Shown piece after piece: positions 442 to 61,835 of a DNA stretch of 64,000 nt. This DNA is from Bacteroidota bacterium. GTDB lineage: Bacteria > Bacteroidota > Bacteroidia > Bacteroidales > UBA4417. Location of the stretch: NCBI GenBank assembly GCA_013376995.1, contig JACAAZ010000007.1:135373-199372 (forward strand), in the 5' to 3' direction. How positions within the stretch are numbered: the first letter of the stretch is position 1; each line of letters starts with the position of its first letter. The notes beneath the pieces were generated by a model. It did not search any database and was not told where the DNA came from. It worked only from the letters and a program-made list of their open reading frames with translations. The position numbers were made by a program, and so were the translations under genes.

Positions 442-463
442 TTATTGAAATTTTTTCATGACC

Positions 464-500
464 AAAAAGAGGTATTCCTAAACAGGATGCCTCTTTTTTT
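464..500 (+). terminator. rho-independent terminator candidate
   Basis: AAGAGG (467..472) pairs with CCTCTT (490..495) and is followed by a T7 run, 23 nt after the stop codon at 439..441. Confidence 0.6.
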
Positions 501-530
501 ATTGTAGGAGGCCGATATCGTTGATTGTAC

Positions 531-640
531 TGATTTTTGAATGAATGATATATGCTGCGATAATGATCAGTTTGTTAACACGCAGATTTCTATGATTGAA
601 ATGATTTTTGAATGACTGATAAATGCTGCATAATTGCTCA
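531..640. repeat. two ~39-nt imperfect direct repeats (TGATTTTTGAATGAMTGATAWATGCTGCRATAAT...) with 71-nt period
   Basis: Copy 1 is 531..569 and copy 2 is 602..640. They were aligned by eye with a few mismatches. Confidence 0.7.
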
Positions 641-657
641 TTTTTTTTAGACTCTGA

Positions 658-673
658 TCCGTCGGCTGACGGA
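658..673. repeat. 16-bp inverted repeat TCCGTCGGCTGACGGA (copy 1 of 3 in window)
   Basis: An identical 16-mer occurs at 60343..60358, and the perfect palindrome TCCGTCAGCTGACGGA at 32896..32911. All three are intergenic. Confidence 0.85.
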
Positions 674-699
674 CTGATTTTAATAGCTGTTCAGCAATT

Positions 700-733
700 A
701 AAAAGCCGGGTAATGAGATTGCCCGGCTTTTTT
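700..733 (-). terminator. bidirectional rho-independent terminator candidate downstream of the TonB-dependent receptor gene
   Basis: 7-bp GC-rich stem: AGCCGGG (704..710) pairs with CCCGGCT (722..728). It is flanked by an A5 run (700..704) and a T5 run (729..733). Confidence 0.65.
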
Positions 734-751
734 ACATATTGCTATTATCAT

Positions 752-2902
752 CTAAAACCTTACTCGAAGGCTGACAAAAAATTCTCTTCCAGCAGCTGGT
801 TGATAGCTGTTGTAATCAGGTCCGCTGTTTGGTTCTGTGAATCCAAAATAATGCTCATCAAAGAAGTTTTTGGCGAACAGACTTAAGTCACCATACAAAG
901 TCCCAATTTTCCAGTCATACTTCAAACTGGCATTGAAAAGGCTATACCCATCTACCCATGAACTCCGTGTATTTACTATGGTATCCTGCGTAACTTCAAT
1001 ATAATTGTTGTAGATGGCTGAATCGGTCTGGATACACCACTTGGATTGTAGTTCAGTATTCAGTGTAAGTGTGAAATGCCTGAGGAATTTATAGGATGCC
1101 TCCGCTGTCAGCATATGTTCCGGGCATTGCGGAATTGTCTGATCCTTTACAGTGCCGGGTGAGGTATATTTGAAATTTGAGTAAGTATAAGCAACTGACA
1201 GGTTGAAGGGATCAATTGGATTGGCTGAAATATAGGCTTCTAAACCGGTTCGCTTACTTTCACCAATATTGCCAAAGTAAGCTGTCTGGCTTCCGGAAGC
1301 TAAGCGGTAAAATTCATCCTTCGCATTGATATTGAAAGCAGTGAGATTGTAGTAGAGCATCTTCCCTAATTCTCCTCTTACCCCAAACTCCATTTGTTGA
1401 ACCGTGGACGGTTTAATACCAGTATTGAATCCACCTTCACCGCCATTATCATAATTATTCAATAGCTCATCTCCTGTTGGTACCAGGTAACCAGTACCAA
1501 AGCTGGCGTAAATATTTGCAACTTTTGCCAGGTCATAGGCTAAACCAAGCCTGAAAGTAGGTTTGTCGAAGGACCTGTTATCAGAAGATTTTGAATCAGG
1601 CTTTTTGTTTTCCAGGTTATTGTAAACATTATCGTATCGTAGATTCAAAGTTGCATACAGCTTTTTCGCAATATCGAGTTTGTCAATCAGGTAGATACCG
1701 AAGCTTCTTTGGAGTATGATCTGGTTGATTTTCAGTTCTTCAGTATCTATATAGGATTCGCCAAAATGGGTATCGGTCCTGGAAAGGTCGTGAATACCTC
1801 CGAACATGTGCTCGGTCATAGTCTGTGATTGAATGTCTGTTCCAATGCTGAGATGGTTGAGAAGCATTTCAGTTCCGTCGTTCCTGTTATATTGAGCAGA
1901 GAAACCGGGGCTGATAAACGGTTTGTAATCATCCCCATTATTCGAAGTTTCCCGGTAGTTATTCAAGCGGAAGAAGCTTTTCAACAGGATATTCTGATTC
2001 TGTCCCAGATCAAAATTGAGAATTGAAGCGCCTGTTAAACGCTGGGTTTTATGGAACTCATTGAATGGAACAGCATCGGTGTTTGCTGCTCTCGGACCGA
2101 AATTCAGGTAGCGGTAATAACTGATCCCTTCGGAATTCTGGTTGAAGTAGCTGGAATAATTGAGAAGTTGGGTGAGTTTTATACGGGAGTTAGGCCTCCA
2201 ATTAAGTTTTTCACTGAAGTTATCACCCATAAATGCCTGGTGCTCACGGTATCCGTTTCCCTGCATATGGGAATAGGAAATCCTGTAATTGACATCACCT
2301 TTAGTGCCTCCCACCTGGGCCTGTGTTTTCCAGAAGCCGTAGGAACCTGCTGACAGGTAAACCGAACCTTTGAAAGGCATCTCGCTTCCATCATTGGTTG
2401 TGATATTTATTACGCCTGCCGTTGAACCCGCGCCATACATAGAAGCAGCCAATCCTTTTAGCACTTCAACGCTTTTGACTGATTCCCAGTCAATATCATA
2501 CAGATCCGGGGCGAATCCACCGGGATTGTTAATAGTTATTCCATCAACCATTACACCTATTCCACGGAATCCACTTTCGGTAAGTACTCCTTGTCCGCGC
2601 ATATATACATGCACACGGGACCCACCGGTTCCGTTCTCGATTTTGACACCCGGTACCAAACGGAAAATATCTTCTGCATTAATGGATTTATTCATGGAGT
2701 TCAGCTGGTTGCCGGTAATGAGTGAGATTGTAGCGGGTATCTCTTTGAGTGGTGTTTTTAACCTGGAAGCTGAAATAACCACTTCATTAAGGTTTTTAAT
2801 TGTATCAGCCTTTTCCGACGGCTTATTATTAGTTTTCTGCGATCGGCTTAGAGTAGATAAAAGCAAAAAAAGAAAGAGAAGCGTAAGTTGTTTGTATTTC
2901 AT
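752..2902 (-). CDS. TonB-dependent outer-membrane receptor
   Basis: 716 aa with a signal peptide and a plug-like N-terminal segment (NEVVISASRLKTPLKEIPATISLI...VHVYMRGQG). The long body is beta-strand-rich and the C-terminus is aromatic (...SLRVRF). Confidence 0.85.
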   Translation of the reverse strand: MKYKQLTLLFLFLLLSTLSRSQKTNNKPSEKADTIKNLNEVVISASRLKTPLKEIPATISLITGNQLNSMNKSINAEDIFRLVPGVKIENGTGGSRVHVYMRGQGVLTESGFRGIGVMVDGITINNPGGFAPDLYDIDWESVKSVEVLKGLAASMYGAGSTAGVINITTNDGSEMPFKGSVYLSAGSYGFWKTQAQVGGTKGDVNYRISYSHMQGNGYREHQAFMGDNFSEKLNWRPNSRIKLTQLLNYSSYFNQNSEGISYYRYLNFGPRAANTDAVPFNEFHKTQRLTGASILNFDLGQNQNILLKSFFRLNNYRETSNNGDDYKPFISPGFSAQYNRNDGTEMLLNHLSIGTDIQSQTMTEHMFGGIHDLSRTDTHFGESYIDTEELKINQIILQRSFGIYLIDKLDIAKKLYATLNLRYDNVYNNLENKKPDSKSSDNRSFDKPTFRLGLAYDLAKVANIYASFGTGYLVPTGDELLNNYDNGGEGGFNTGIKPSTVQQMEFGVRGELGKMLYYNLTAFNINAKDEFYRLASGSQTAYFGNIGESKRTGLEAYISANPIDPFNLSVAYTYSNFKYTSPGTVKDQTIPQCPEHMLTAEASYKFLRHFTLTLNTELQSKWCIQTDSAIYNNYIEVTQDTIVNTRSSWVDGYSLFNASLKYDWKIGTLYGDLSLFAKNFFDEHYFGFTEPNSGPDYNSYQPAAGREFFVSLRVRF

Positions 2903-4273: not shown

Positions 4274-5140
4274 ATGTCACTTGGCCACAAATTTTACCTT
4301 TTCCTGTTAACAATTATCACTCTAGCTGTTCTGGCCTATCTATCGTTTCATGGTTGGAATTATTATCAAACAAACCTTGAAGACCGGTTTTTTCATCCTG
4401 ATTATGCATCTCTGAAACCAAGCGGGATTTTCGGACATGGCTATGGAATTATTGGTTCATTGTGCATGTTGTTAGGCGTAGTATTATATATAGCCAGGAA
4501 ACGGCTTCGCAGCTGGTCGAGGATTGGCCTGCTCAAGCATTGGCTGGAGTTTCATATTTTTCTTTGCACAGTTGGTCCTATCCTTGTCCTCTATCATACA
4601 ACATTCAAATTCGGAGGATTGGTAGCCGTTAGTTTCTGGAGTATGGTTGCTGTGTTTGCTTCCGGTGTTATAGGCCGGTTCATTTATATCCAGATCCCGC
4701 GGACCATTGAAGGACGCGAGTTAAGCCTCAGTGAGGTTCGTGACATGAAGAGTAATATTGGACAGGTTCTATCTGAATCTTATCACCTGGATGAGGACTC
4801 TTTTAACCTGATCGTTGAATCTACAAGGAAGAAGATAGAAGTAATAGATTCAAACATTATTGCCAGGTATTTCAAAAAATATTCAGCTGACACAAAAGCT
4901 ATAAAGGCAGTGCATTCTGCTTTGTCAAAGAATAACTTATCAAAATCTGAAACCAGGGAATTATTAAGGCTGGTAAAGCACGATATCTCGCTCAACAGGA
5001 GGATTGACAGGCTGGTAACCATGCAGAACCTTTTTAAATACTGGCATGTGGCTCATCTTCCCTTTGCTTTTGTCATGCTGATCATCATGGTCATTCATGT
5101 TGCTGTAACCGTCACTTTTGGAGCTCATTGGATTTTCTGA
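4274..5140 (+). CDS. polytopic membrane protein with two H-x13-H pairs (putative dihaem-b transmembrane electron carrier, ferric-reductase-domain-like)
   Basis: The ATG at 4274 is preferred over the TTG at 4202. About 5 TM helices are predicted. FH-IFLCTVGPILVLY-H lies in one helix and AH-LPFAFVMLIIMVI-H in another. A long soluble insert sits between them. Confidence 0.6.
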   Translation: MSLGHKFYLFLLTIITLAVLAYLSFHGWNYYQTNLEDRFFHPDYASLKPSGIFGHGYGIIGSLCMLLGVVLYIARKRLRSWSRIGLLKHWLEFHIFLCTVGPILVLYHTTFKFGGLVAVSFWSMVAVFASGVIGRFIYIQIPRTIEGRELSLSEVRDMKSNIGQVLSESYHLDEDSFNLIVESTRKKIEVIDSNIIARYFKKYSADTKAIKAVHSALSKNNLSKSETRELLRLVKHDISLNRRIDRLVTMQNLFKYWHVAHLPFAFVMLIIMVIHVAVTVTFGAHWIF

Positions 5141-31697: not shown

Positions 31698-32723
31698 TTA
31701 GTGTAACAACCTGATAACAAACCCTGTAATAACCATGTTGAAAATGGCCAGCGGGATAAGTTTCTTCCATCCCAGTTTCATAAGTTGATCATACCTGAAC
31801 CTTGGTAAGGTCCAGCGGATCCACATGAAAACAAAGCCAAAAAATGTAATTTTCAGGAAGAGAATCAGAACTCCTATAATGGTAAGGATGTTATGAGAAA
31901 CTGGTAACATGGATTCAAACGGGAAATGGTATCCGCCGAAATAGAGGCAGGAAATGATAGCAGCTGATATAAACATATTGATATATTCGGCAAACAGGTA
32001 GAAGCCGAGTTTCATGGAACTGTATTCGGTATGGTATCCTCCTACCAATTCAGTTTCACATTCAGGAAGGTCAAAAGGTGCACGATTCGTTTCAGCGAGG
32101 GCGCAAACAAGGAAGATGACAAATCCAAGCGGCTGATACCAAACGTTCCAGTTGAATCCAGCCTGCTGGTCAACGATCTTCTGAATACTCAGGGTTCCTG
32201 ACATCATAACCACGGCAATGATAGATAATCCCATTGCCAGTTCATAGCTGATCATCTGGGAGGCAGCACGAATGGCTCCCAACAGCGCATATTTATTGTT
32301 CGAGGCCCATCCCCCGATCATAATTCCATAGACACCAACAGAAACGACTGCAAAAACATAGAGTATCCCAATATTGATATCAGCAACCTGGAGACTGAAT
32401 TCATGCCCATTGATAATAAGGCTGTTACCCCAGGGGATTACTGCGGAGGTGAGCAAAGCCACCAGCATGGTGAGGGAAGGCCCGAGGATATAAAGGAATT
32501 TATTAGCTGATGCGGGCATGAATTCCTCTTTGTAGAAAAGCTTGATGCCATCAGCCAGGGGCTGTAACAGTCCGAAGGGACCTGCCCTGTCCGGCCCAAG
32601 CCTGTCCTGGAAAAAGGCAGCAAGCTTCCTCTCAGCCAATGTGGAGTACATGGCAATCAGCAGGCTCACAGTCAGTATGGCGATGGACAGAGTGGCTTTG
32701 TATAGGATGAATTGGTATTCCAT
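31698..32723 (-). CDS. nuoH: NADH-quinone oxidoreductase subunit H
   Basis: 341 aa (…RLGPDRAGPFGLLQPLADGIKL…, …APFDLPECETELVGGYHTEYS…). Confidence 0.93.
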   Translation of the reverse strand: MEYQFILYKATLSIAILTVSLLIAMYSTLAERKLAAFFQDRLGPDRAGPFGLLQPLADGIKLFYKEEFMPASANKFLYILGPSLTMLVALLTSAVIPWGNSLIINGHEFSLQVADINIGILYVFAVVSVGVYGIMIGGWASNNKYALLGAIRAASQMISYELAMGLSIIAVVMMSGTLSIQKIVDQQAGFNWNVWYQPLGFVIFLVCALAETNRAPFDLPECETELVGGYHTEYSSMKLGFYLFAEYINMFISAAIISCLYFGGYHFPFESMLPVSHNILTIIGVLILFLKITFFGFVFMWIRWTLPRFRYDQLMKLGWKKLIPLAIFNMVITGFVIRLLH

Positions 32724-33032
32724 GCTGGTCTTTTAGGGTACTAAAAATCTCTTGATGTTAAGGCTAAGCGCTAAGAGCATAGTGCATAGCGTTATATTGA
32801 TGTTATAATTTATGCAGGGTAGTTTTATTCTTTTGCATCTTGATTCGTTCTTCTGACTTCCGACTTCTTACTTCCTATTTTTATCTTTTGACTTTTCCGT
32901 CAGCTGACGGATTTGACTTTTATCTTTTGACTTTTGTCTTTTGTCTTTTGACTTTTGTCTTTTGACTTTTGTCTTTTATCTTTTGACTTTTATCTTATTC
33001 CTCCCCACTTTGCGCTTAACGCTGCACCCCCC
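32724..33032. repeat. mosaic heptamer-repeat spacer between nuoG and nuoH (region A)
   Basis: 309 nt non-coding. It has about 15 phased WCTTTTR heptamers (about 32880..32997), GACTTCC/TACTTCC words, and GCTAAGCGCTAAGAGCATAGTGCATAGCG (32762..32790). The perfect 16-bp palindrome lies at 32896..32911. Confidence 0.9.
32896..32911. repeat. perfect 16-bp palindrome TCCGTCAGCTGACGGA (copy 2 of 3)
   Basis: Read directly from the sequence. It is embedded in the CTTTTG heptamer tract. Confidence 0.9.
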
Positions 33033-34001
33033 TCACTCCTGTTTCTCTGTCTTTTCCTCAAGTGGCTTGATGATAGACGGTTTTTTTATTTTTTCATAAT
33101 GGTTGGCTGATATGACCGAATTCCGTTCGATGTGGCGGGGGCCTTCAATAACCCAATCGGAAGTCTGTTTCTTTTCAAAACGGCATTCATCGCAAATGAA
33201 TTCCTCAACTTCTCCGAATTGATCCTTGCGGGCAGTTACCCTGTAAATCTCCTTGCCAAACATCCAGGCTGTGACTTTCCCGCTGCATTTCAGGCAATCG
33301 CGGTGGGCGTTCATTGGGTTCAGGAACCATACCCTGCTTTTAAAGCGGAAAGTGCGGTCAGTCAGGGCCCCTACAGGGCATACATCAATCACATTCCCTG
33401 AGAAATCAGAATTAATATTTTGGCTGATGAGGGTGCTGATCTCAGCCGTGTCACCCCTGTACATCACGCCATGCACACGTTTGCCGGCAATCTGGTCCGC
33501 AGTATAAACGCAGCGGTAGCAAAGGATACATCGGTTCATGTGCAGTTTGATCTTCTCACCAATATCAACTACATCAAATTCTCTTTTCTCTTCGATATAG
33601 CGGGTAGCTTCAAGTCCATGTTTGAAACTGAGGTCCTGGAGGTCGCATTCACCAGCCTGGTCGCAAACCGGGCAATCCAACGGGTGATTGATCAGCAGGA
33701 ATTCCACGATGGCTTTCCTGGCTGCAAGAACTTCGGGAGATGTTATATTCTGAACGACCATTCCATCCTGGACAGGTGTGCTGCATGAGGCTACCAATTT
33801 AGGCATAGGCCTTGGATCAGCTGCGGAACCCTGGGCTACTTTAACCAGGCAGGTACGGCATTTTCCGCCGCTTCCCTTCAATTTGGAGTAGTAACACATA
33901 GCAGGAGGCACTACTTCCCCGCCGATTTTTCTGGCAGCGTTGAGGATAGTGGTTCCCGGTTCTACTTCGACCGTTATGTTATCAATGGTTACTTTAAACA
34001 T
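33033..34001 (-). CDS. nuoG: NADH-quinone oxidoreductase subunit G, short form (FeS N-terminal module only)
   Basis: 2Fe-2S motif CYYSKLKGSGGKCRTCLV...C, HPLDCPVCDQAGEC, and CILCYRC...CPVGAL. The ATG at 34001 overlaps the nuoF stop by 8 nt; the ORF track TTG is at 34013. Confidence 0.88.
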   Translation of the reverse strand: MFKVTIDNITVEVEPGTTILNAARKIGGEVVPPAMCYYSKLKGSGGKCRTCLVKVAQGSAADPRPMPKLVASCSTPVQDGMVVQNITSPEVLAARKAIVEFLLINHPLDCPVCDQAGECDLQDLSFKHGLEATRYIEEKREFDVVDIGEKIKLHMNRCILCYRCVYTADQIAGKRVHGVMYRGDTAEISTLISQNINSDFSGNVIDVCPVGALTDRTFRFKSRVWFLNPMNAHRDCLKCSGKVTAWMFGKEIYRVTARKDQFGEVEEFICDECRFEKKQTSDWVIEGPRHIERNSVISANHYEKIKKPSIIKPLEEKTEKQE

Positions 34002-35340
34002 GTACTTGTGCAAGTTTAGAAATGGGCTGGTGTTTTGGATCCCTGACCAATTCCGGGTAATTTACATGAAATTCAAATTCTTCCCTGAAATGCCTTATGG
34101 CGCTGGCAACAGGCCAAGCAGCAGCATCCCCGAGCGGACAGATGGTATTGCCTTCAATCTTGGCCGCTATGCTTACGAGCAGGTCAATATCTTCCTGGCG
34201 CCCATGGCCGTTCTCGATCCGGTGAAGCACCTTCTCCATCCAGCCTGTGCCTTCGCGGCAGGGCGAACACTGGCCGCAGCTTTCATGGTGGTAAAAACGT
34301 GAGAAATTCCAGGTACTGCGGACCATGCAGGCATCCGCATCATACACAATAAATCCCCCGGAACCCATCATGGTCCCGCTGACAAATCCACCTTCAGCCA
34401 GGGATTCATAACTCATAAGCCTTGGTTCACCTGCTGCGGTAGTAGTAATCAGCTTAGCAGGAAGAACAGGAACCGAAGATCCGCCGGGTATAACAGCTTT
34501 TAATTGCTTCCCGCCTTTGATGCCCCCGCAATATTCTTCGGAAAACAGGAATTCACTGACCGGAAGCCCCAGTTCTATTTCATAAACACCCGGTTTGTTA
34601 ATATTGCCGCAGGCAGAGATCAGTTTTGTACCAGTACTACGTCCAATTCCAATCTTAGCGTATTCAGGGCCGCCCATATTGATGATAGGGCCGACGGCTG
34701 CAAGTGTTTCTACATTGTTGACTACCGTAGGGCAGTCGTAAAGCCCCTTAACAGCGGGGAAAGGAGGTTTGATGCGGGGATTTCCCCTTTTACCTTCCAG
34801 GGATTCCAGCAAAGCTGTTTCTTCACCGCAGATATAGGCTCCCGCACCTGAATGAACATATATCTCAAGCGAGTAATTCGTTCCGAGTATATTTTTTCCA
34901 AGGAAACCGGCTTTACGGGCTTCGGCTACCGCCTGTTCCAGGATGCCAATTTGGGTTTTAAACTCACCCCTGACATAAACGAAGGTGGCATTGCAGCCCA
35001 GTGCATAACTTGAAACAATCAAACCTTCAATTAACAGGTGAGGGATATGGTCAATCAGGTAGCGATCCTTGAATGTTCCGGGTTCACTTTCATCTGCATT
35101 ACAAACGAGGTAGCGGGGATTATTGGTTTTCCTGTCTAAGAAGCTCCATTTGAGGCCTGTCGGGAAGCCGGCTCCACCACGGCCACGCAGGCCCGATTTC
35201 TTAACCTCTTCGATGACTTCGTCAGGAGACATGGTTTTCAGGGCTTTCTCCACTGCGGAGTAGCCTTTGTTGGCCCGGTAAACATCGAAGGTTTTGATGC
35301 CGGGAACGTCGATATGTTCTAACAGAATTTTTCGGCCCAT
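33994..35340 (-). CDS. nuoF: NADH-quinone oxidoreductase subunit F (FMN/NADH-binding)
   Basis: GRGGAGFPTGLKW, GAGAYICGEETALLESLEG and ESCGQCSPCREG. Confidence 0.95.
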   Translation of the reverse strand: MGRKILLEHIDVPGIKTFDVYRANKGYSAVEKALKTMSPDEVIEEVKKSGLRGRGGAGFPTGLKWSFLDRKTNNPRYLVCNADESEPGTFKDRYLIDHIPHLLIEGLIVSSYALGCNATFVYVRGEFKTQIGILEQAVAEARKAGFLGKNILGTNYSLEIYVHSGAGAYICGEETALLESLEGKRGNPRIKPPFPAVKGLYDCPTVVNNVETLAAVGPIINMGGPEYAKIGIGRSTGTKLISACGNINKPGVYEIELGLPVSEFLFSEEYCGGIKGGKQLKAVIPGGSSVPVLPAKLITTTAAGEPRLMSYESLAEGGFVSGTMMGSGGFIVYDADACMVRSTWNFSRFYHHESCGQCSPCREGTGWMEKVLHRIENGHGRQEDIDLLVSIAAKIEGNTICPLGDAAAWPVASAIRHFREEFEFHVNYPELVRDPKHQPISKLAQVHV

Positions 35341-59077: not shown

Positions 59078-60241
59078 CTGAAACGAAGAATAGCCATACT
59101 TGGATCTACAGGCTCCATTGGAACACAGGCGCTGGAAGTCATTCGCGACCATCCCCGTGAACTGGATGTCGAAGTGCTTACTGCACATTCCAATGCCCCC
59201 CTTCTTATCAGGCAGGCCCTGGAATTCAAGCCCAATGTTGTGGTTATTGCTAAGGAGAGCATGTACGAAAAGGTACATGAAGCCCTGGATCCTTTTGACA
59301 TCAAAGTATATGCTGGAGAAGAGTCCATTTCGCAGGTTGTTGCAATGGATACAATCGACATGGTGCTTGTAGCCCTGGTAGGATTTTCGGGACTGAAGCC
59401 GACCATTGAAGCCATCAAGGCACAAAAACCCATTGCTCTTGCAAATAAGGAGACATTGGTGGTAGCAGGTGAACTCGTCACCCGTCTTGCTAAGGAGAAA
59501 GGTGTTAACATTTACCCAGTTGACTCTGAGCATTCGGCGATCTTTCAATGCCTTGCCGGGGAATTCCATAACCCGGTCGAAAAAGTTATCCTCACCGCCT
59601 CCGGCGGGCCATTTAGGGGAATGGACCGCAAAGCATTGGAAAAAGTAAGCAAGGACCAGGCCCTTAATCATCCAAACTGGAAAATGGGCTGTAAGGTCAC
59701 TATTGACTCTGCTTCTATGATGAACAAAGGTCTTGAGGTTATTGAAGCCTGCTGGCTATTTGGGCTCAAACCTGAACAGGTTGATGTGATCATTCATCCG
59801 CAGAGTATTATTCACTCCCTTGTGCAGTTTACTGACGGAGCGATGAAAGCCCAAATGGGGCTGCCTGACATGCGCCTTCCCATTCAATATGCTCTTGGAT
59901 ATCCACAGCGGATGAAATCTTCATTTCCGCGGTTTAACTTCCTGGATTATCCCCAACTGACTTTCCAGGCTCCGGACCATGAAGCTTTCCCCTGCCTGGA
60001 TCTTGCCTACAGCGCAATGAAAAAGGGTGGAAATATGCCTTGTGTGATGAATGCGGCGGATGAAATTGCAGTGCATGCTTTCCTTCGTGAAGAGATCAGT
60101 TTCCTCCAGATCCCTGAACTCATTGAACAATGCATGAACACTTCAGGTTTCATTCAAGCTCCAGGCTTTGACGAGTTTATGCTGACGGACCAGGAAACCA
60201 GGATGCTGGCAAATGAGGTATTGCGTAAAATGAAACGATGA
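59078..60241 (+). CDS. dxr: 1-deoxy-D-xylulose 5-phosphate reductoisomerase
   Basis: (L/M)KRRIAILGSTGSIGTQALEVI NADPH motif, NKGLEVIEA, 3' end at 60241. The 5' end is uncertain. The conserved N-terminus lies upstream of the first GTG (59174) with no ATG/GTG/TTG after the in-frame stop at 59060; CTG at 59078 is proposed. Confidence 0.85.
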   Translation: MKRRIAILGSTGSIGTQALEVIRDHPRELDVEVLTAHSNAPLLIRQALEFKPNVVVIAKESMYEKVHEALDPFDIKVYAGEESISQVVAMDTIDMVLVALVGFSGLKPTIEAIKAQKPIALANKETLVVAGELVTRLAKEKGVNIYPVDSEHSAIFQCLAGEFHNPVEKVILTASGGPFRGMDRKALEKVSKDQALNHPNWKMGCKVTIDSASMMNKGLEVIEACWLFGLKPEQVDVIIHPQSIIHSLVQFTDGAMKAQMGLPDMRLPIQYALGYPQRMKSSFPRFNFLDYPQLTFQAPDHEAFPCLDLAYSAMKKGGNMPCVMNAADEIAVHAFLREEISFLQIPELIEQCMNTSGFIQAPGFDEFMLTDQETRMLANEVLRKMKR

Positions 60242-60509
60242 TCGTCTTACCTTTGCAGGGAGAGGCAGTGGTCACACAATAGTCAAACAATGGTCAAACA
60301 ATGGTCAAACAATGGTCAAACAATGGTCAAACAATGGTCATTTCCGTCGGCTGACGGATCATTCAATTGGCGTAGGGCATAGCGCTTAGAGGGGGTAATA
60401 AGGAGATAAAAGCTTTGCATCTTTGCGCCTTTGCGAGAGAAAGAATAGTCAGACAAGAACGAACAAACAATAACCAATAACTCATAACACATTATCCTTC
60501 AACATATAT
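60242..60509. repeat. mosaic repeat spacer between dxr and rseP (region F)
   Basis: 11-mer array TGGTCAAACAA x about 7 (60269..60345, four perfect copies), the 16-bp inverted repeat (60343..60358) and GCATAGCGCTTAG. It also has CTTTGCATCTTTGCGCCTTTGCG and a 48-nt G-free CCAATAAC/CTCATAAC leader (60462..60509). Confidence 0.92.
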
Positions 60510-61835
60510 ATGGTCATATTAATAAAAGCTGCACAACTACTCCTGAGTCTGTCGATCCTTGTGATCTTTCATGAATTCGGACATTATATTGCCGCCAAGA
60601 TTTTCAAAACACGTGTAGAGAAGTTTTACCTCTTTTTCGATCCCTGGTTCTCACTCTTTAAATTCAAAAAAGGCGAGACTGAATATGGAGTGGGCTGGCT
60701 TCCTCTTGGTGGATATGTCAAGATATCCGGGATGATTGATGAGTCCATGGACAAGGAAGCCATGAAACTTCCGCCTCAGCCATGGGAATTTCGTTCGAAA
60801 CCAGCATGGCAGAGACTGATCATTATGCTTGGTGGTGTTACGGTTAACATTCTTCTGGCTATCGGGATTTATATTATCACCCTGGCAGCATGGGGAGATG
60901 AATATCTTCCCACCAGCGAAGTAAGATTCGGGATTACCGTTGATTCAGTTGGTCAGCAACTTGGATTGAAGAACGGGGACAAGATTTTGAGTGTCGACAA
61001 CCAGGTGGTTGAAGATTTTACAAAGATTCCGGGCAGGATCATCCTTGAAAATGCCAAAACTATCCAGATTGAACGCGAAGGACAGAAGATGGAAGTCAAT
61101 GTCCCAATGGGTTTTATTTCAAAACTTATCAAGCACCAGTCTGCTGATTTCATCAATGTGAGGATACCTTTCGAAGTTGCTGAATTCTCCAAAAGTTCAC
61201 TGGCTCCGGCTGCAGGTATGAAGATTGGGGATAAAATCATAGGGCTTAATGAGTTATCTACACCCTGGTTTGATCAATTCAAATCGGAGTTGGGAAAGAT
61301 GAAGAACAAGGAAGTGACAGTGGTTGCCCTTCGCGGAGTTGATACTGTAAGAATGAAGGTAAAAGTTCCATCCACCGGTATTCTTGGTATTGCTCCCCAA
61401 TTGCCAATAAAATACTTTTCTTTTAAAGAGAGGCATTATAATATCCTCCAGGCAATCCCTGCAGGCGTATCAAAAGCCTATGCCGGTGTGGGGAATTACC
61501 TGAAACAACTTAAACTCATCTTCTCACCTGAGGTCAAAGCCTACGAATCAGTGGGTGGTTTTATTACTATTGGAAAGATATTCCCTTCCACCTGGGATTG
61601 GGGTGCTTTCTGGGGATTAACGGCCTTCCTGAGCATTATGCTTGCTATCCTTAACGTTTTGCCTATCCCTGCCCTGGATGGAGGCCACGTGCTCTTCCTG
61701 CTCTTTGAGATTGTTACAGGCCGGAAGCCAAGCGATAAATTCCTCGAATATGCCCAGATCGTTGGTATGGTTCTCCTTTTTGGCTTACTGATATTCGCCA
61801 ACGGGAATGATATTATCAAGTTATTCAGGCATTGA
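60510..61835 (+). CDS. rseP: RIP site-2 metalloprotease RseP
   Basis: HEFGHY zinc motif, a PDZ-like middle region and NVLPIPALDGGH. Confidence 0.93.
   Translation: MVILIKAAQLLLSLSILVIFHEFGHYIAAKIFKTRVEKFYLFFDPWFSLFKFKKGETEYGVGWLPLGGYVKISGMIDESMDKEAMKLPPQPWEFRSKPAWQRLIIMLGGVTVNILLAIGIYIITLAAWGDEYLPTSEVRFGITVDSVGQQLGLKNGDKILSVDNQVVEDFTKIPGRIILENAKTIQIEREGQKMEVNVPMGFISKLIKHQSADFINVRIPFEVAEFSKSSLAPAAGMKIGDKIIGLNELSTPWFDQFKSELGKMKNKEVTVVALRGVDTVRMKVKVPSTGILGIAPQLPIKYFSFKERHYNILQAIPAGVSKAYAGVGNYLKQLKLIFSPEVKAYESVGGFITIGKIFPSTWDWGAFWGLTAFLSIMLAILNVLPIPALDGGHVLFLLFEIVTGRKPSDKFLEYAQIVGMVLLFGLLIFANGNDIIKLFRH

Follow-up and report, generated by a model that had tools for sequence, protein, structure and literature searches.

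Intergenic palindromes in the window

What is a 16-bp inverted repeat, TCCGTC-N4-GACGGA, doing at three distant places in one stretch of a bacterial chromosome? The stretch, hereafter the window, comprises 64,000 nt of a Bacteroidota metagenome-assembled genome (MAG; G000, 5.05 Mb, 42% G+C, 43 contigs), of which it forms C41:135373-199372. A sequence-only reading had listed copies starting at 658, 32896 and 60343, had placed all three between genes, and had proposed an operator for a dimeric protein or a recombinase/nuclease site; the coordinates, the sequences and the intergenic location (Table 1) all proved correct. We found that these three copies belong to a genome-wide population of discrete units, and we consider it rather probable that the palindromes are very small non-autonomous insertion modules, the 16-mer being subfamily A beside two others, B and C.

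Abundance and anatomy of the units

Within the window, 100 dinucleotide-preserving shuffles produced no match to TCCGTC-N4-GACGGA, a search allowing one mismatch revealed no additional copy, and an Rfam search matched no family. Genome-wide, we counted 55 perfect copies (about 0.1 expected from base composition alone), and TCCGTC was the commonest stem among all perfect 6-N-6 inverted repeats with centres of 3-6 nt. The second commonest was its sister, present as TCCGCC-N4-GGCGGA (41) and TCCGCC-N3-GGCGGA (32), 73 copies in all; every other such repeat had at most 17. The degenerate pattern TCCGYC-N4-GRCGGA matched 98 times per strand, compared with a single match for the same pattern written backwards. 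Perfect copies of the three forms thus total 128 (55 + 41 + 32): form A is TCCGTC-AGCT-GACGGA, form B is TCCGCC-AGCT-GGCGGA (TCCGCCAGCTGGCGGA) and form C is TCCGCC-TSA-GGCGGA, where S is C or G.

The anatomy of the unit is strict. Arm position 5 co-varies as a T-A or a C-G pair, with mixed arms in only five copies, and the arms are always 3 or 4 nt apart. The centre is AGCT in 64 of the 96 16-mers and a single-base variant of AGCT in the remainder, so that the consensus is a perfect palindrome across all 16 positions; conservation of the arms is about three times that of the centre. Decayed copies were also recognizable, about 56 with one arm mismatch (about 18 expected by chance) and 15 with compensated double changes. 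Single half-sites reached only about twice the simple composition expectation, enrichment being confined to full palindromes, and solitary half-sites showed no excess over chance, those in spacers being nearly all decayed full copies, which indicates that the unit is indivisible. The base pair just outside the stem was non-complementary in 124 of 132 copies (75% expected), so that the stem here does not form the tip of any longer hairpin; the 14-mer palindrome TCCGCCGCGGCGGA had no copy here. The predicted hairpin energies were -8.1 (A) and -10.2 (B) kcal/mol as RNA and -4.6 to -5.9 kcal/mol as DNA, and the earlier remark that the repeat is too tight for a useful RNA hairpin does not hold for a 6-bp stem with a 4-nt loop of such predicted stability.

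Confinement to long spacers

Using a crude and approximate gene map (greedy open reading frames (ORFs) with a minimum length of 100 aa, which together make up 86.5% of the genome), we placed 123 of the 128 perfect copies between genes (binomial P ~1e-99), the remaining five lying in doubtful ORFs within long spacers. A frequency equal to that expected from base composition, or equal occurrence in coding DNA, had been named beforehand as the outcomes that would count against the motif, and neither was observed. The host spacers were long (median 404 nt vs 125 nt for all spacers) and numbered 102, of which 84 held a single copy and 18 held two to four; up to four copies stood in one array, 32-65 bp apart, and spacings of 43 and 65 nt were seen in arrays. 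Family A (n = 48) was distributed over spacer classes as the base-pair background predicts (35 co-directional, 3 convergent, 10 divergent), and convergent spacers held a mild excess of B and C (9/36 and 9/28 copies vs 12% of intergenic bases). Relative position in co-directional spacers was uniform (Kolmogorov-Smirnov p = 0.18), and only 21 of 91 copies lay within 100 nt of a start codon.

A multi-copy gene of about 600 bp, encoding a small protein that by eye is probably exported, occurs at C16:80937-81547, C16:82953-83574, C43:2736-3341 and the contig ends C32:90 and C33:59. In the one gene copy read (C16:83507), the palindrome TCCGCCAGCCGGCGGA lies about 50 nt upstream of the start codon, and TCCGCCAGCCGGCGGA with the same flanks is also found at the two contig ends.

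Replacement of host nucleotides in unrelated contexts

Many copies were embedded in short tandem arrays, built of GGTCATTCAAT-type 11-mers, CTTTTRT heptamers, AATAACC, ATCCGTG/ATCTGCG-type words and others. Array polarity is unchanged on crossing the palindrome; at copy 2, the TTTGTCT repeat that follows the hairpin is also found 5' of it, giving the same polarity on both sides. The junction is constant for each array type, being GGTCATT-hairpin-TCATTCAAT in the 11-mer arrays and CTTT-hairpin-TTTG in the T-rich heptamer arrays, and orientation of the arrays relative to transcription is random (10:12 and 8:10, respectively). At least six array types serve as hosts in this genome, and other types do so in G012, a member of the same genus.

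To define what the palindrome displaces, we searched the genome for identical 11-nt flanks enclosing something other than the palindrome. These filled/empty comparisons showed that the unit stands in for 4-10 nt of host: CAATGG in 11-mer arrays; TGTCT, TATCT or TTCCT in T-rich heptamer arrays; TAACC in AATAACC arrays; and CGTTG, ACCCTT, TGACA or CGAAA at other sites. In one stem-loop, an 8-nt loop, ATTACAAT, was replaced by the palindrome. A flanking direct repeat of at least 3 nt accompanied 58 of the 128 copies, compared with 9% of shifted controls.

Tandem Repeats Finder (TRF) identified 338 array regions in 242 spacers, only 32 of which held a palindrome; conversely, 39 of the 128 palindromes lay in or adjoined a TRF-scored array, and a cruder word count put about half of the copies in arrays. 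The proposal that the repeat is the anchor of a spacer family must therefore be abandoned: so few array regions carry a copy, and so many copies (about half) lie elsewhere, that the palindrome is rather a guest of mosaic spacers. The description of the window flanks as T-rich and GATTT-like was apt only in part, in that the flanks of copies 2 and 3 are whatever tandem array hosts the copy, and a tandem array sought in the flanks of copy 1 was not found.

Palindromes in tRNA-gene remnants

Ten of the 128 copies occurred in tandem partial copies of tRNA genes adjoining an intact gene (Table 1). In the tRNA-Val(GAC) partial copies, GT followed by TCCGTCAGCTGACGGA takes the place of GTCACTGG, which forms the T stem's 5' strand, and the filled/empty comparison gave CCAGTG as the segment replaced in the two copies. 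In the tRNA-Arg(CCT) partial copies, AACGGAAGTT is replaced by TCCGTCAGCCGACGGA, and the corresponding comparison gave AACTTCCGTT. The tRNA-Leu pseudo-copy carries form B in place of the variable arm and a decayed form A in place of a second region. The intact tRNA genes were untouched by palindromes whereas their copies were hit, as expected if insertions are frequent and tolerated only in dispensable copies.

As an observation on these loci in general, four tRNA genes (Val-GAC, Arg-CCT, Leu-CAG and Gln-TTG) have partial self-copies in tandem, before or after the gene, and every partial copy has a mini-palindrome in place of a tRNA stem. The tandem partial copies look like stacked attachment-site remnants.

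Gain and loss among related species

Among 24 other species genomes of the genus, only G010 (67 copies) and G012 (76 copies) were rich in palindromes, and most had none; G028, from another family, had 23. Divergence within the genus is deep, flanking genes being only about 70-77% identical at the nucleotide level. In the dxr-rseP spacer, which hosts copy 3 of the window, G004 and G013 have plain spacers of 160-190 nt, G010 has T-rich arrays and G012 has CAGCACC heptamers, none with a palindrome, and three further orthologous spacers in G010 or G012 had entirely different fillings, likewise without it. Thus, none of four orthologous spacers compared with G010 or G012 had a palindrome copy in common. 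A look-up of the RseP protein yielded a single Logan contig, which breaks inside the spacer, and only one other assembly of the strain.

G013, a congener without palindromes, has a miniature inverted-repeat transposable element (MITE) of about 250 bp, in which heptamer arrays in inverted orientation (GATAAAA... / ...CTTTTAT) form the two ends and enclose a conserved core of some 90 bp (L128:2150-2650, L143 and L144); one copy lies in the nuoG-nuoH spacer.

Beyond the genus, the exact 16-mers TCCGYCAGCTGRCGGA were present in 47 of 400 Bacteroidota genomes at least 90% complete, and the reversed control was absent everywhere. Of these 47 genomes, 28 belong to a single family of a different class, for which 61 genomes were included, and that family has up to 27 copies per genome; the present genome was the richest among those counted (65 copies). 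An exact-16-mer scan of 185,579 species genomes gave at least 118 loci, about half of them in Bacteroidota; Draconibacterium orientale DSM 25947 and D. aestuarii were each among the genomes matched. Many scan loci represent chance or ordinary sequence, namely terminator tips, tRNA arms, a 23S rRNA helix and coding sequence of high-G+C phyla.

Several scan loci deserve individual mention. Two contigs of the Candidate Phyla Radiation (CPR), L053 (Saccharibacteria, position 4518) and L069 (Kazan, position 356), have a common extended context, ggcgtagTCCGTCAGCTGACGGAcgaaga, and the Kazan contig holds three copies within 1.1 kb. In two Terriglobia contigs (L071 and L072), the 16-mer sits at the tip of longer non-coding hairpins. 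The CPR and Terriglobia occurrences are possibly the same module outside Bacteroidota. In Rhodohalobacter halophilus (L117, position 3083), the 16-mer lies in a variable region near the 5' end of the 23S rRNA gene, just upstream of the conserved GGGGAACTGAAACATCTAAGTA block, and looks like the tip of a variable helix. Viral contigs gave 55 matches, mostly in high-G+C coding sequence (an IRQLAE-type reading, by eye) with few non-coding hairpins, and give no sign of phages being the main vector.

Conversion of hairpin tips in another class

In G103, a genome of the different class mentioned above, at least five MITE-like repeat families have longer hairpins that are tipped with form B. In the family GGATGATTCAA-tip-TTGAATC, the tip is either the native 13-mer TTGCGTNNAGCRK (five copies) or the 16-mer. 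A palindrome-bearing and a palindrome-less copy (L249 and L253) are 95% identical over 132 flanking nt, and a second such pair (L248 and L254) has 83% flank identity, whereas palindrome-bearing copies are only 55-61% identical among themselves. For two of three palindrome-bearing copies compared, the nearest relative was a palindrome-less one, so that the same spot was converted more than once, either by targeted insertion or by gene conversion via the conserved stem.

Probable insertion modules and their possible mechanism

Three observations carry our reading of the palindromes as small insertion modules. They form a discrete, indivisible unit of 15 or 16 nt confined to non-coding DNA; the unit replaces a few host nucleotides in many unrelated contexts; and it is gained and lost between related species while being letter-for-letter identical in distant Bacteroidota. 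Such units would spread as DNA, with primary insertions made by a putative trans-acting enzyme. That the units favour stem tips and tRNA-like stems suggests that this enzyme recognizes folded single-stranded DNA, perhaps at its tip, or small cruciforms; a small hairpin or cruciform is probably what it acts on. Copies might then multiply secondarily, through tandem duplication, to which the spacings of 43 and 65 nt in arrays would correspond, and through ectopic gene conversion from one homologous array or MITE copy to another; such spread would most simply explain the constant junction within one host repeat type. Arm symmetry may be kept by intrastrand template switching (quasi-palindrome correction) in place of selection. 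Besides such correction of one arm on the other, faithful copying of two master forms would also account for arms that are perfectly symmetrical and hardly ever mixed. A regulatory role for neighbouring genes is most likely absent. The recombinase/nuclease recognition site suggested at the outset is a live possibility, as the site of whatever inserts the palindrome. The fullest version of this reading, in which the palindrome is a bona fide mobile module, one of the smallest known, and a structure-specific enzyme inserts it at hairpin tips, in short tandem arrays and in tRNA-like stems, is a tentative one; the enzyme would be common to many Bacteroidota and perhaps to other phyla, given the copies in comparable non-coding hairpins of Acidobacteriota and CPR contigs. 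It is a reading to which we give less than an even chance.

Several points weigh against mobility. Identity across phyla alone proves nothing about it, and we did not use it as proof. Plain gene conversion via the conserved stems could account for the repeated acquisition seen in one MITE family, and the better conservation of the arms could equally reflect selection for function. Within arrays, replacement is indistinguishable from insertion with a short target duplication; outside arrays, the replacement is true. Finally, a mover was sought among Y1 (IS200/RAYT-type, RAYT being the REP-associated tyrosine transposase of repetitive extragenic palindromic (REP) sequences) and PF05635 genes, and the counts of neither track palindrome counts.

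Candidate movers

Y1 transposase (PF01797) genes were present in 38 of 41 relatives whatever their palindrome count, and no motif lay near the three such genes located in the present genome (C6:132-473, C43:129202-129549 and C43:204344-204577); lacking both correlation with abundance and adjacency to the motif, the Y1/RAYT transposase was rejected. Tandem repeats with periods of about 86 and 99 nt were noted at C43:129794-130594 and C43:203247-203822, 250-600 nt from the two PF01797 genes of contig C43.

Of the five PF05635 genes in this genome, which encode the four-helix-bundle protein of 23S rRNA intervening sequences, four are bracketed by inverted short-repeat arrays, one of them of the 11-mer family (Table 1), but none of the five carries the palindrome. 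G028 combines 23 palindromes with no PF05635 match, and G007 and G014 each have 19 PF05635 genes and no palindromes, so that this candidate, too, was dropped for want of correlation and adjacency. The same cassette was seen in G010 (C85, L145).

A self-BLAST for multi-copy insertion sequences ending in a half-site found none, the MAG having few long repeats. We also rejected the idea that the palindrome consists of two abutted 8-bp transposon ends (a MITE with terminal inverted repeats), since true solo TCCGYCAG sites occur in spacers at the coding-region background rate.

Alternative explanations

Could the hairpin instead be a selected element at the RNA level, which in spacer transcripts gives protection from 3' exonucleases, marks a site of RNase processing or terminates weakly, as has been suggested for REP sequences, with recombination merely distributing the copies? 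We regard this as unlikely. It would accommodate the predicted stability of the hairpin as RNA, the co-varying and well-conserved arms, the mild excess of B and C in convergent spacers and the terminator-like score of copy 1. Against these stand the lack of any enrichment of family A after genes, the uniform position within spacers and the unbiased orientation of the arrays relative to transcription. G-U type intermediates, moreover, are almost absent; an RNA loop would have no need of the palindromic symmetry shown by the usual centre, AGCT; most congeners lack the palindrome and orthologous spacers do not keep it; and a terminator at copy 2 would do harm, as this copy is internal to the nuo operon. 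Nor did the palindrome behave as an intrinsic terminator (a G+C-rich hairpin with a T tract, on the sense strand, 3' of genes): array orientation is random, 10 of 48 family A copies are in divergent spacers, and at copy 2 the sense strand is A-rich.

A second alternative holds that nothing moves, and that palindromes arise repeatedly in place through replication slippage and template switching, converging on one word. Arms would become perfect through quasi-palindrome correction by intrastrand template switching, an established form of mutation, and some replaced host segments do resemble part of the palindrome (ACGGA in tRNA-Arg; GTCA..CTG in tRNA-Val). Yet the same 16 letters appear in mutually dissimilar hosts (11-mers, T-rich heptamers, AATAACC, MITE apices and an 8-nt loop) and in distant classes, spacing and centre are fixed, and graded intermediates are absent at filled/empty pairs. 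As convergence on all 16 letters dozens of times is very unlikely, so in our judgement is this explanation.

The proposal of the sequence-only reading, a site for a dimeric DNA-binding protein, whether an operator or a nucleoid-organizing site like those of parS, Noc, SlmA or MatP, fares no better, and we hold it to be highly improbable. The duplex has perfect 16-bp two-fold symmetry, and tens to a hundred copies per genome match the size and number of some nucleoid-organizing sites, but such sites usually occur in genes too, whereas the palindrome is strictly excluded from them. An operator is further contradicted by the free position, by the functionally unrelated neighbours (at the window copies a TonB-dependent receptor, nuoH/nuoG and dxr/rseP), by the close packing of up to four copies in one spacer or array, and by half-sites that almost never mix, unlike those expected from independent half-site binding. 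Absence from most congeners, the lack of retention at any of the four orthologous spacers, and the occurrences inside tRNA remnants and at MITE tips point the same way. Thus, the palindrome displayed no fixed promoter position, coherent gene set or orthologous conservation of the kind that marks transcription-factor operators.

A DNA-uptake-type or restriction-related signal is scarcely conceivable: the centre forms a CAGCTG site, and the core CCGTC is similar to a portion of the uptake sequence of Neisseria, which is often paired as inverted repeats after genes, but the enrichment here is limited to full palindromes, coding DNA lacks them, their distribution within the genus is patchy, and the CAGCTG hexamer, on which a link to methylation or restriction had been based, is neither avoided nor enriched (0.93 of expected).

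Features of the window and related loci

The three window copies, their spacers and the related loci elsewhere in the genome are compiled in Table 1. In the spacer of copy 2, the mRNA strand is the A-rich strand. The hairpin at 700-731 (aaaaagccgg...ccggctttttt), one of the two that flank copy 1, was identified by eye alone and looks bidirectional.

Table 1. Positions of palindromes, host spacers, arrays and associated loci (window positions unless a contig is named).
Feature	Position	Strand	Sequence or unit	Context
Copy 1	658-673		TCCGTCGGCTGACGGA; family A, loop GGCT	direct repeat CTGA...CTGA on both sides; convergent spacer, between two intrinsic-terminator-like hairpins
Copy 2	32896-32911		TCCGTCAGCTGACGGA; family A consensus, perfect 16-bp palindrome	in T-rich heptamer array, with the usual junction
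Copy 3	60343-60358		TCCGTCGGCTGACGGA	end of 11-mer array, with the usual junction
Host spacer, copy 1	442-751			convergent; small ORF 112-441 (+, no Pfam match) and TonB-dependent receptor gene 752-2902 (-)
Host spacer, copy 2	32724-33032			inside nuo operon; nuoH-like 31698-32723 (-) and nuoG-like 33033-34013 (-)
Host spacer, copy 3	60242-60509			between dxr 59174-60241 (+) and rseP 60510-61835 (+)
Heptamer array	32912-32996	+	TTTGTCT, 12 copies	directly 3' of copy 2
11-mer array	60269-60340	+	TGGTCAAACAA, 6.5 copies	directly 5' of copy 3
Intrinsic-terminator-like hairpins	464-498 and 700-731			two strong hairpins with T tracts, either side of copy 1
tRNA-Val(GAC)	C4:109500-110420		two 331-nt repeats	each with the gene's 3' half
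tRNA-Arg(CCT)	C15:18700-19200		75-nt repeats	
tRNA-Leu(CAG) pseudo-copy	C8:65200-65660		units of about 100 nt	
tRNA-Gln(TTG)	C34:146850-147260		183-nt repeats	form C abutting T loop
PF05635 cassettes	C14:1-900, C16:51200-52450, C37:1-900, C3:118350-119550		arrays GTAGGAA, GAAGTCC, 11-mer ATTGAATGACA, CAATTCGG	

Significance

Bacterial genomes are thought to be low in junk, and the smallest accepted mobile DNAs, MITEs and REPINs (inverted REP doublets), measure 40 to several hundred bases and depend on known transposases. Here, a 16-letter word for which we found neither coding capacity nor a partner gene has colonized over 100 spacers of a single genome. Should it truly be mobile, it would be moved either by an enzyme activity of a new kind or by a housekeeping activity put to a new use, in both cases acting on small DNA hairpins, and discovery of that mover would reveal a new mode of DNA insertion at folded single strands. 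Mobility would also bear on genome plasticity, on the origin of the unexplained heptamer spacers in Bacteroidota and cyanobacteria, and possibly on tools. On the practical side, such repeats break MAG assemblies, and annotation may mistake them for operators or terminators.

Comparison with known systems

Our literature search found no paper with either 16-mer. The intervening sequences of 23S rRNA genes have been described as replacing the tip of a hairpin, and the PF05635 cassettes that belong to this comparison are bracketed here by the same kinds of short repeats as the palindromes, but none carries the palindrome itself. REP sequences and REPINs resemble the palindromes in being short, extragenic and palindromic, in tens to hundreds of copies, and sometimes clustered (PMC3116915, PMC3733652). 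REPINs are inverted doublets beside a RAYT gene (Bertels & Rainey 2011, PMC3116915). In tagged REPs, the head (GTAG or CGTC) is unpaired, and those of the CGTC type have a stem of 8-9 bp starting with two A-T pairs, a loop of 4-5 nt and a CCA-like tail; CGTC-type REPs occur without a dedicated transposase, some of them in Bacteroidetes (Di Nocera et al. 2013, PMC3733652). Membership in the REP/REPIN-RAYT system was rejected in view of the lack of a conserved head or tail and of a constant outer tetranucleotide, the mostly single copies (84 of 102 spacers) and the lack of a flanked Y1 gene. Nor is the palindrome a CGTC-tagged REP, its CGTC lying inside the 6-bp stem (TCCGTC), with no such A-T first pairs and no CCA tail.

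Heptanucleotide arrays of the short tandemly repeated repetitive (STRR) type, known from heterocystous cyanobacteria and, as Xanthomonas/Nostoc heptamers, from Rehm et al. 2015 (PMC4692102), correspond to the main host of the palindromes, which is likewise intergenic with a period of 7 or 11 nt. They are the host and not the element, given that most array regions of this genome hold no palindrome. Small dispersed repeats (SDRs) of Nostocaceae, for their part, reportedly occur within tandem heptamer repeats too, according to Elhai's 2008 paper.

These SDRs (SDR1-8; Elhai et al. 2008) offer the closest behaviour, the likeness being one of working alike, with no claim of membership or sequence relationship. 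According to later papers, SDRs are 21-27 nt long and reported only in Nostocaceae (PMC5861425), and SDR5 inserts precisely between the third and fourth base of HIP1 (PMC4390886, PMC5861425). The palindromes differ in being 15-16 nt long, perfect, of other sequence and in Bacteroidota, and in occurring also in tRNA remnants and MITE tips. What the two have in common is that they are intergenic modules, highly repeated and much smaller than a MITE, without a transposase of their own or a known mover. An SDR is a unit of less than 30 nt whose positions differ between related genomes, and the palindromes show just this: 15-16 nt in length, 128 copies, none common to the four orthologous spacers, and sites found both filled and empty.

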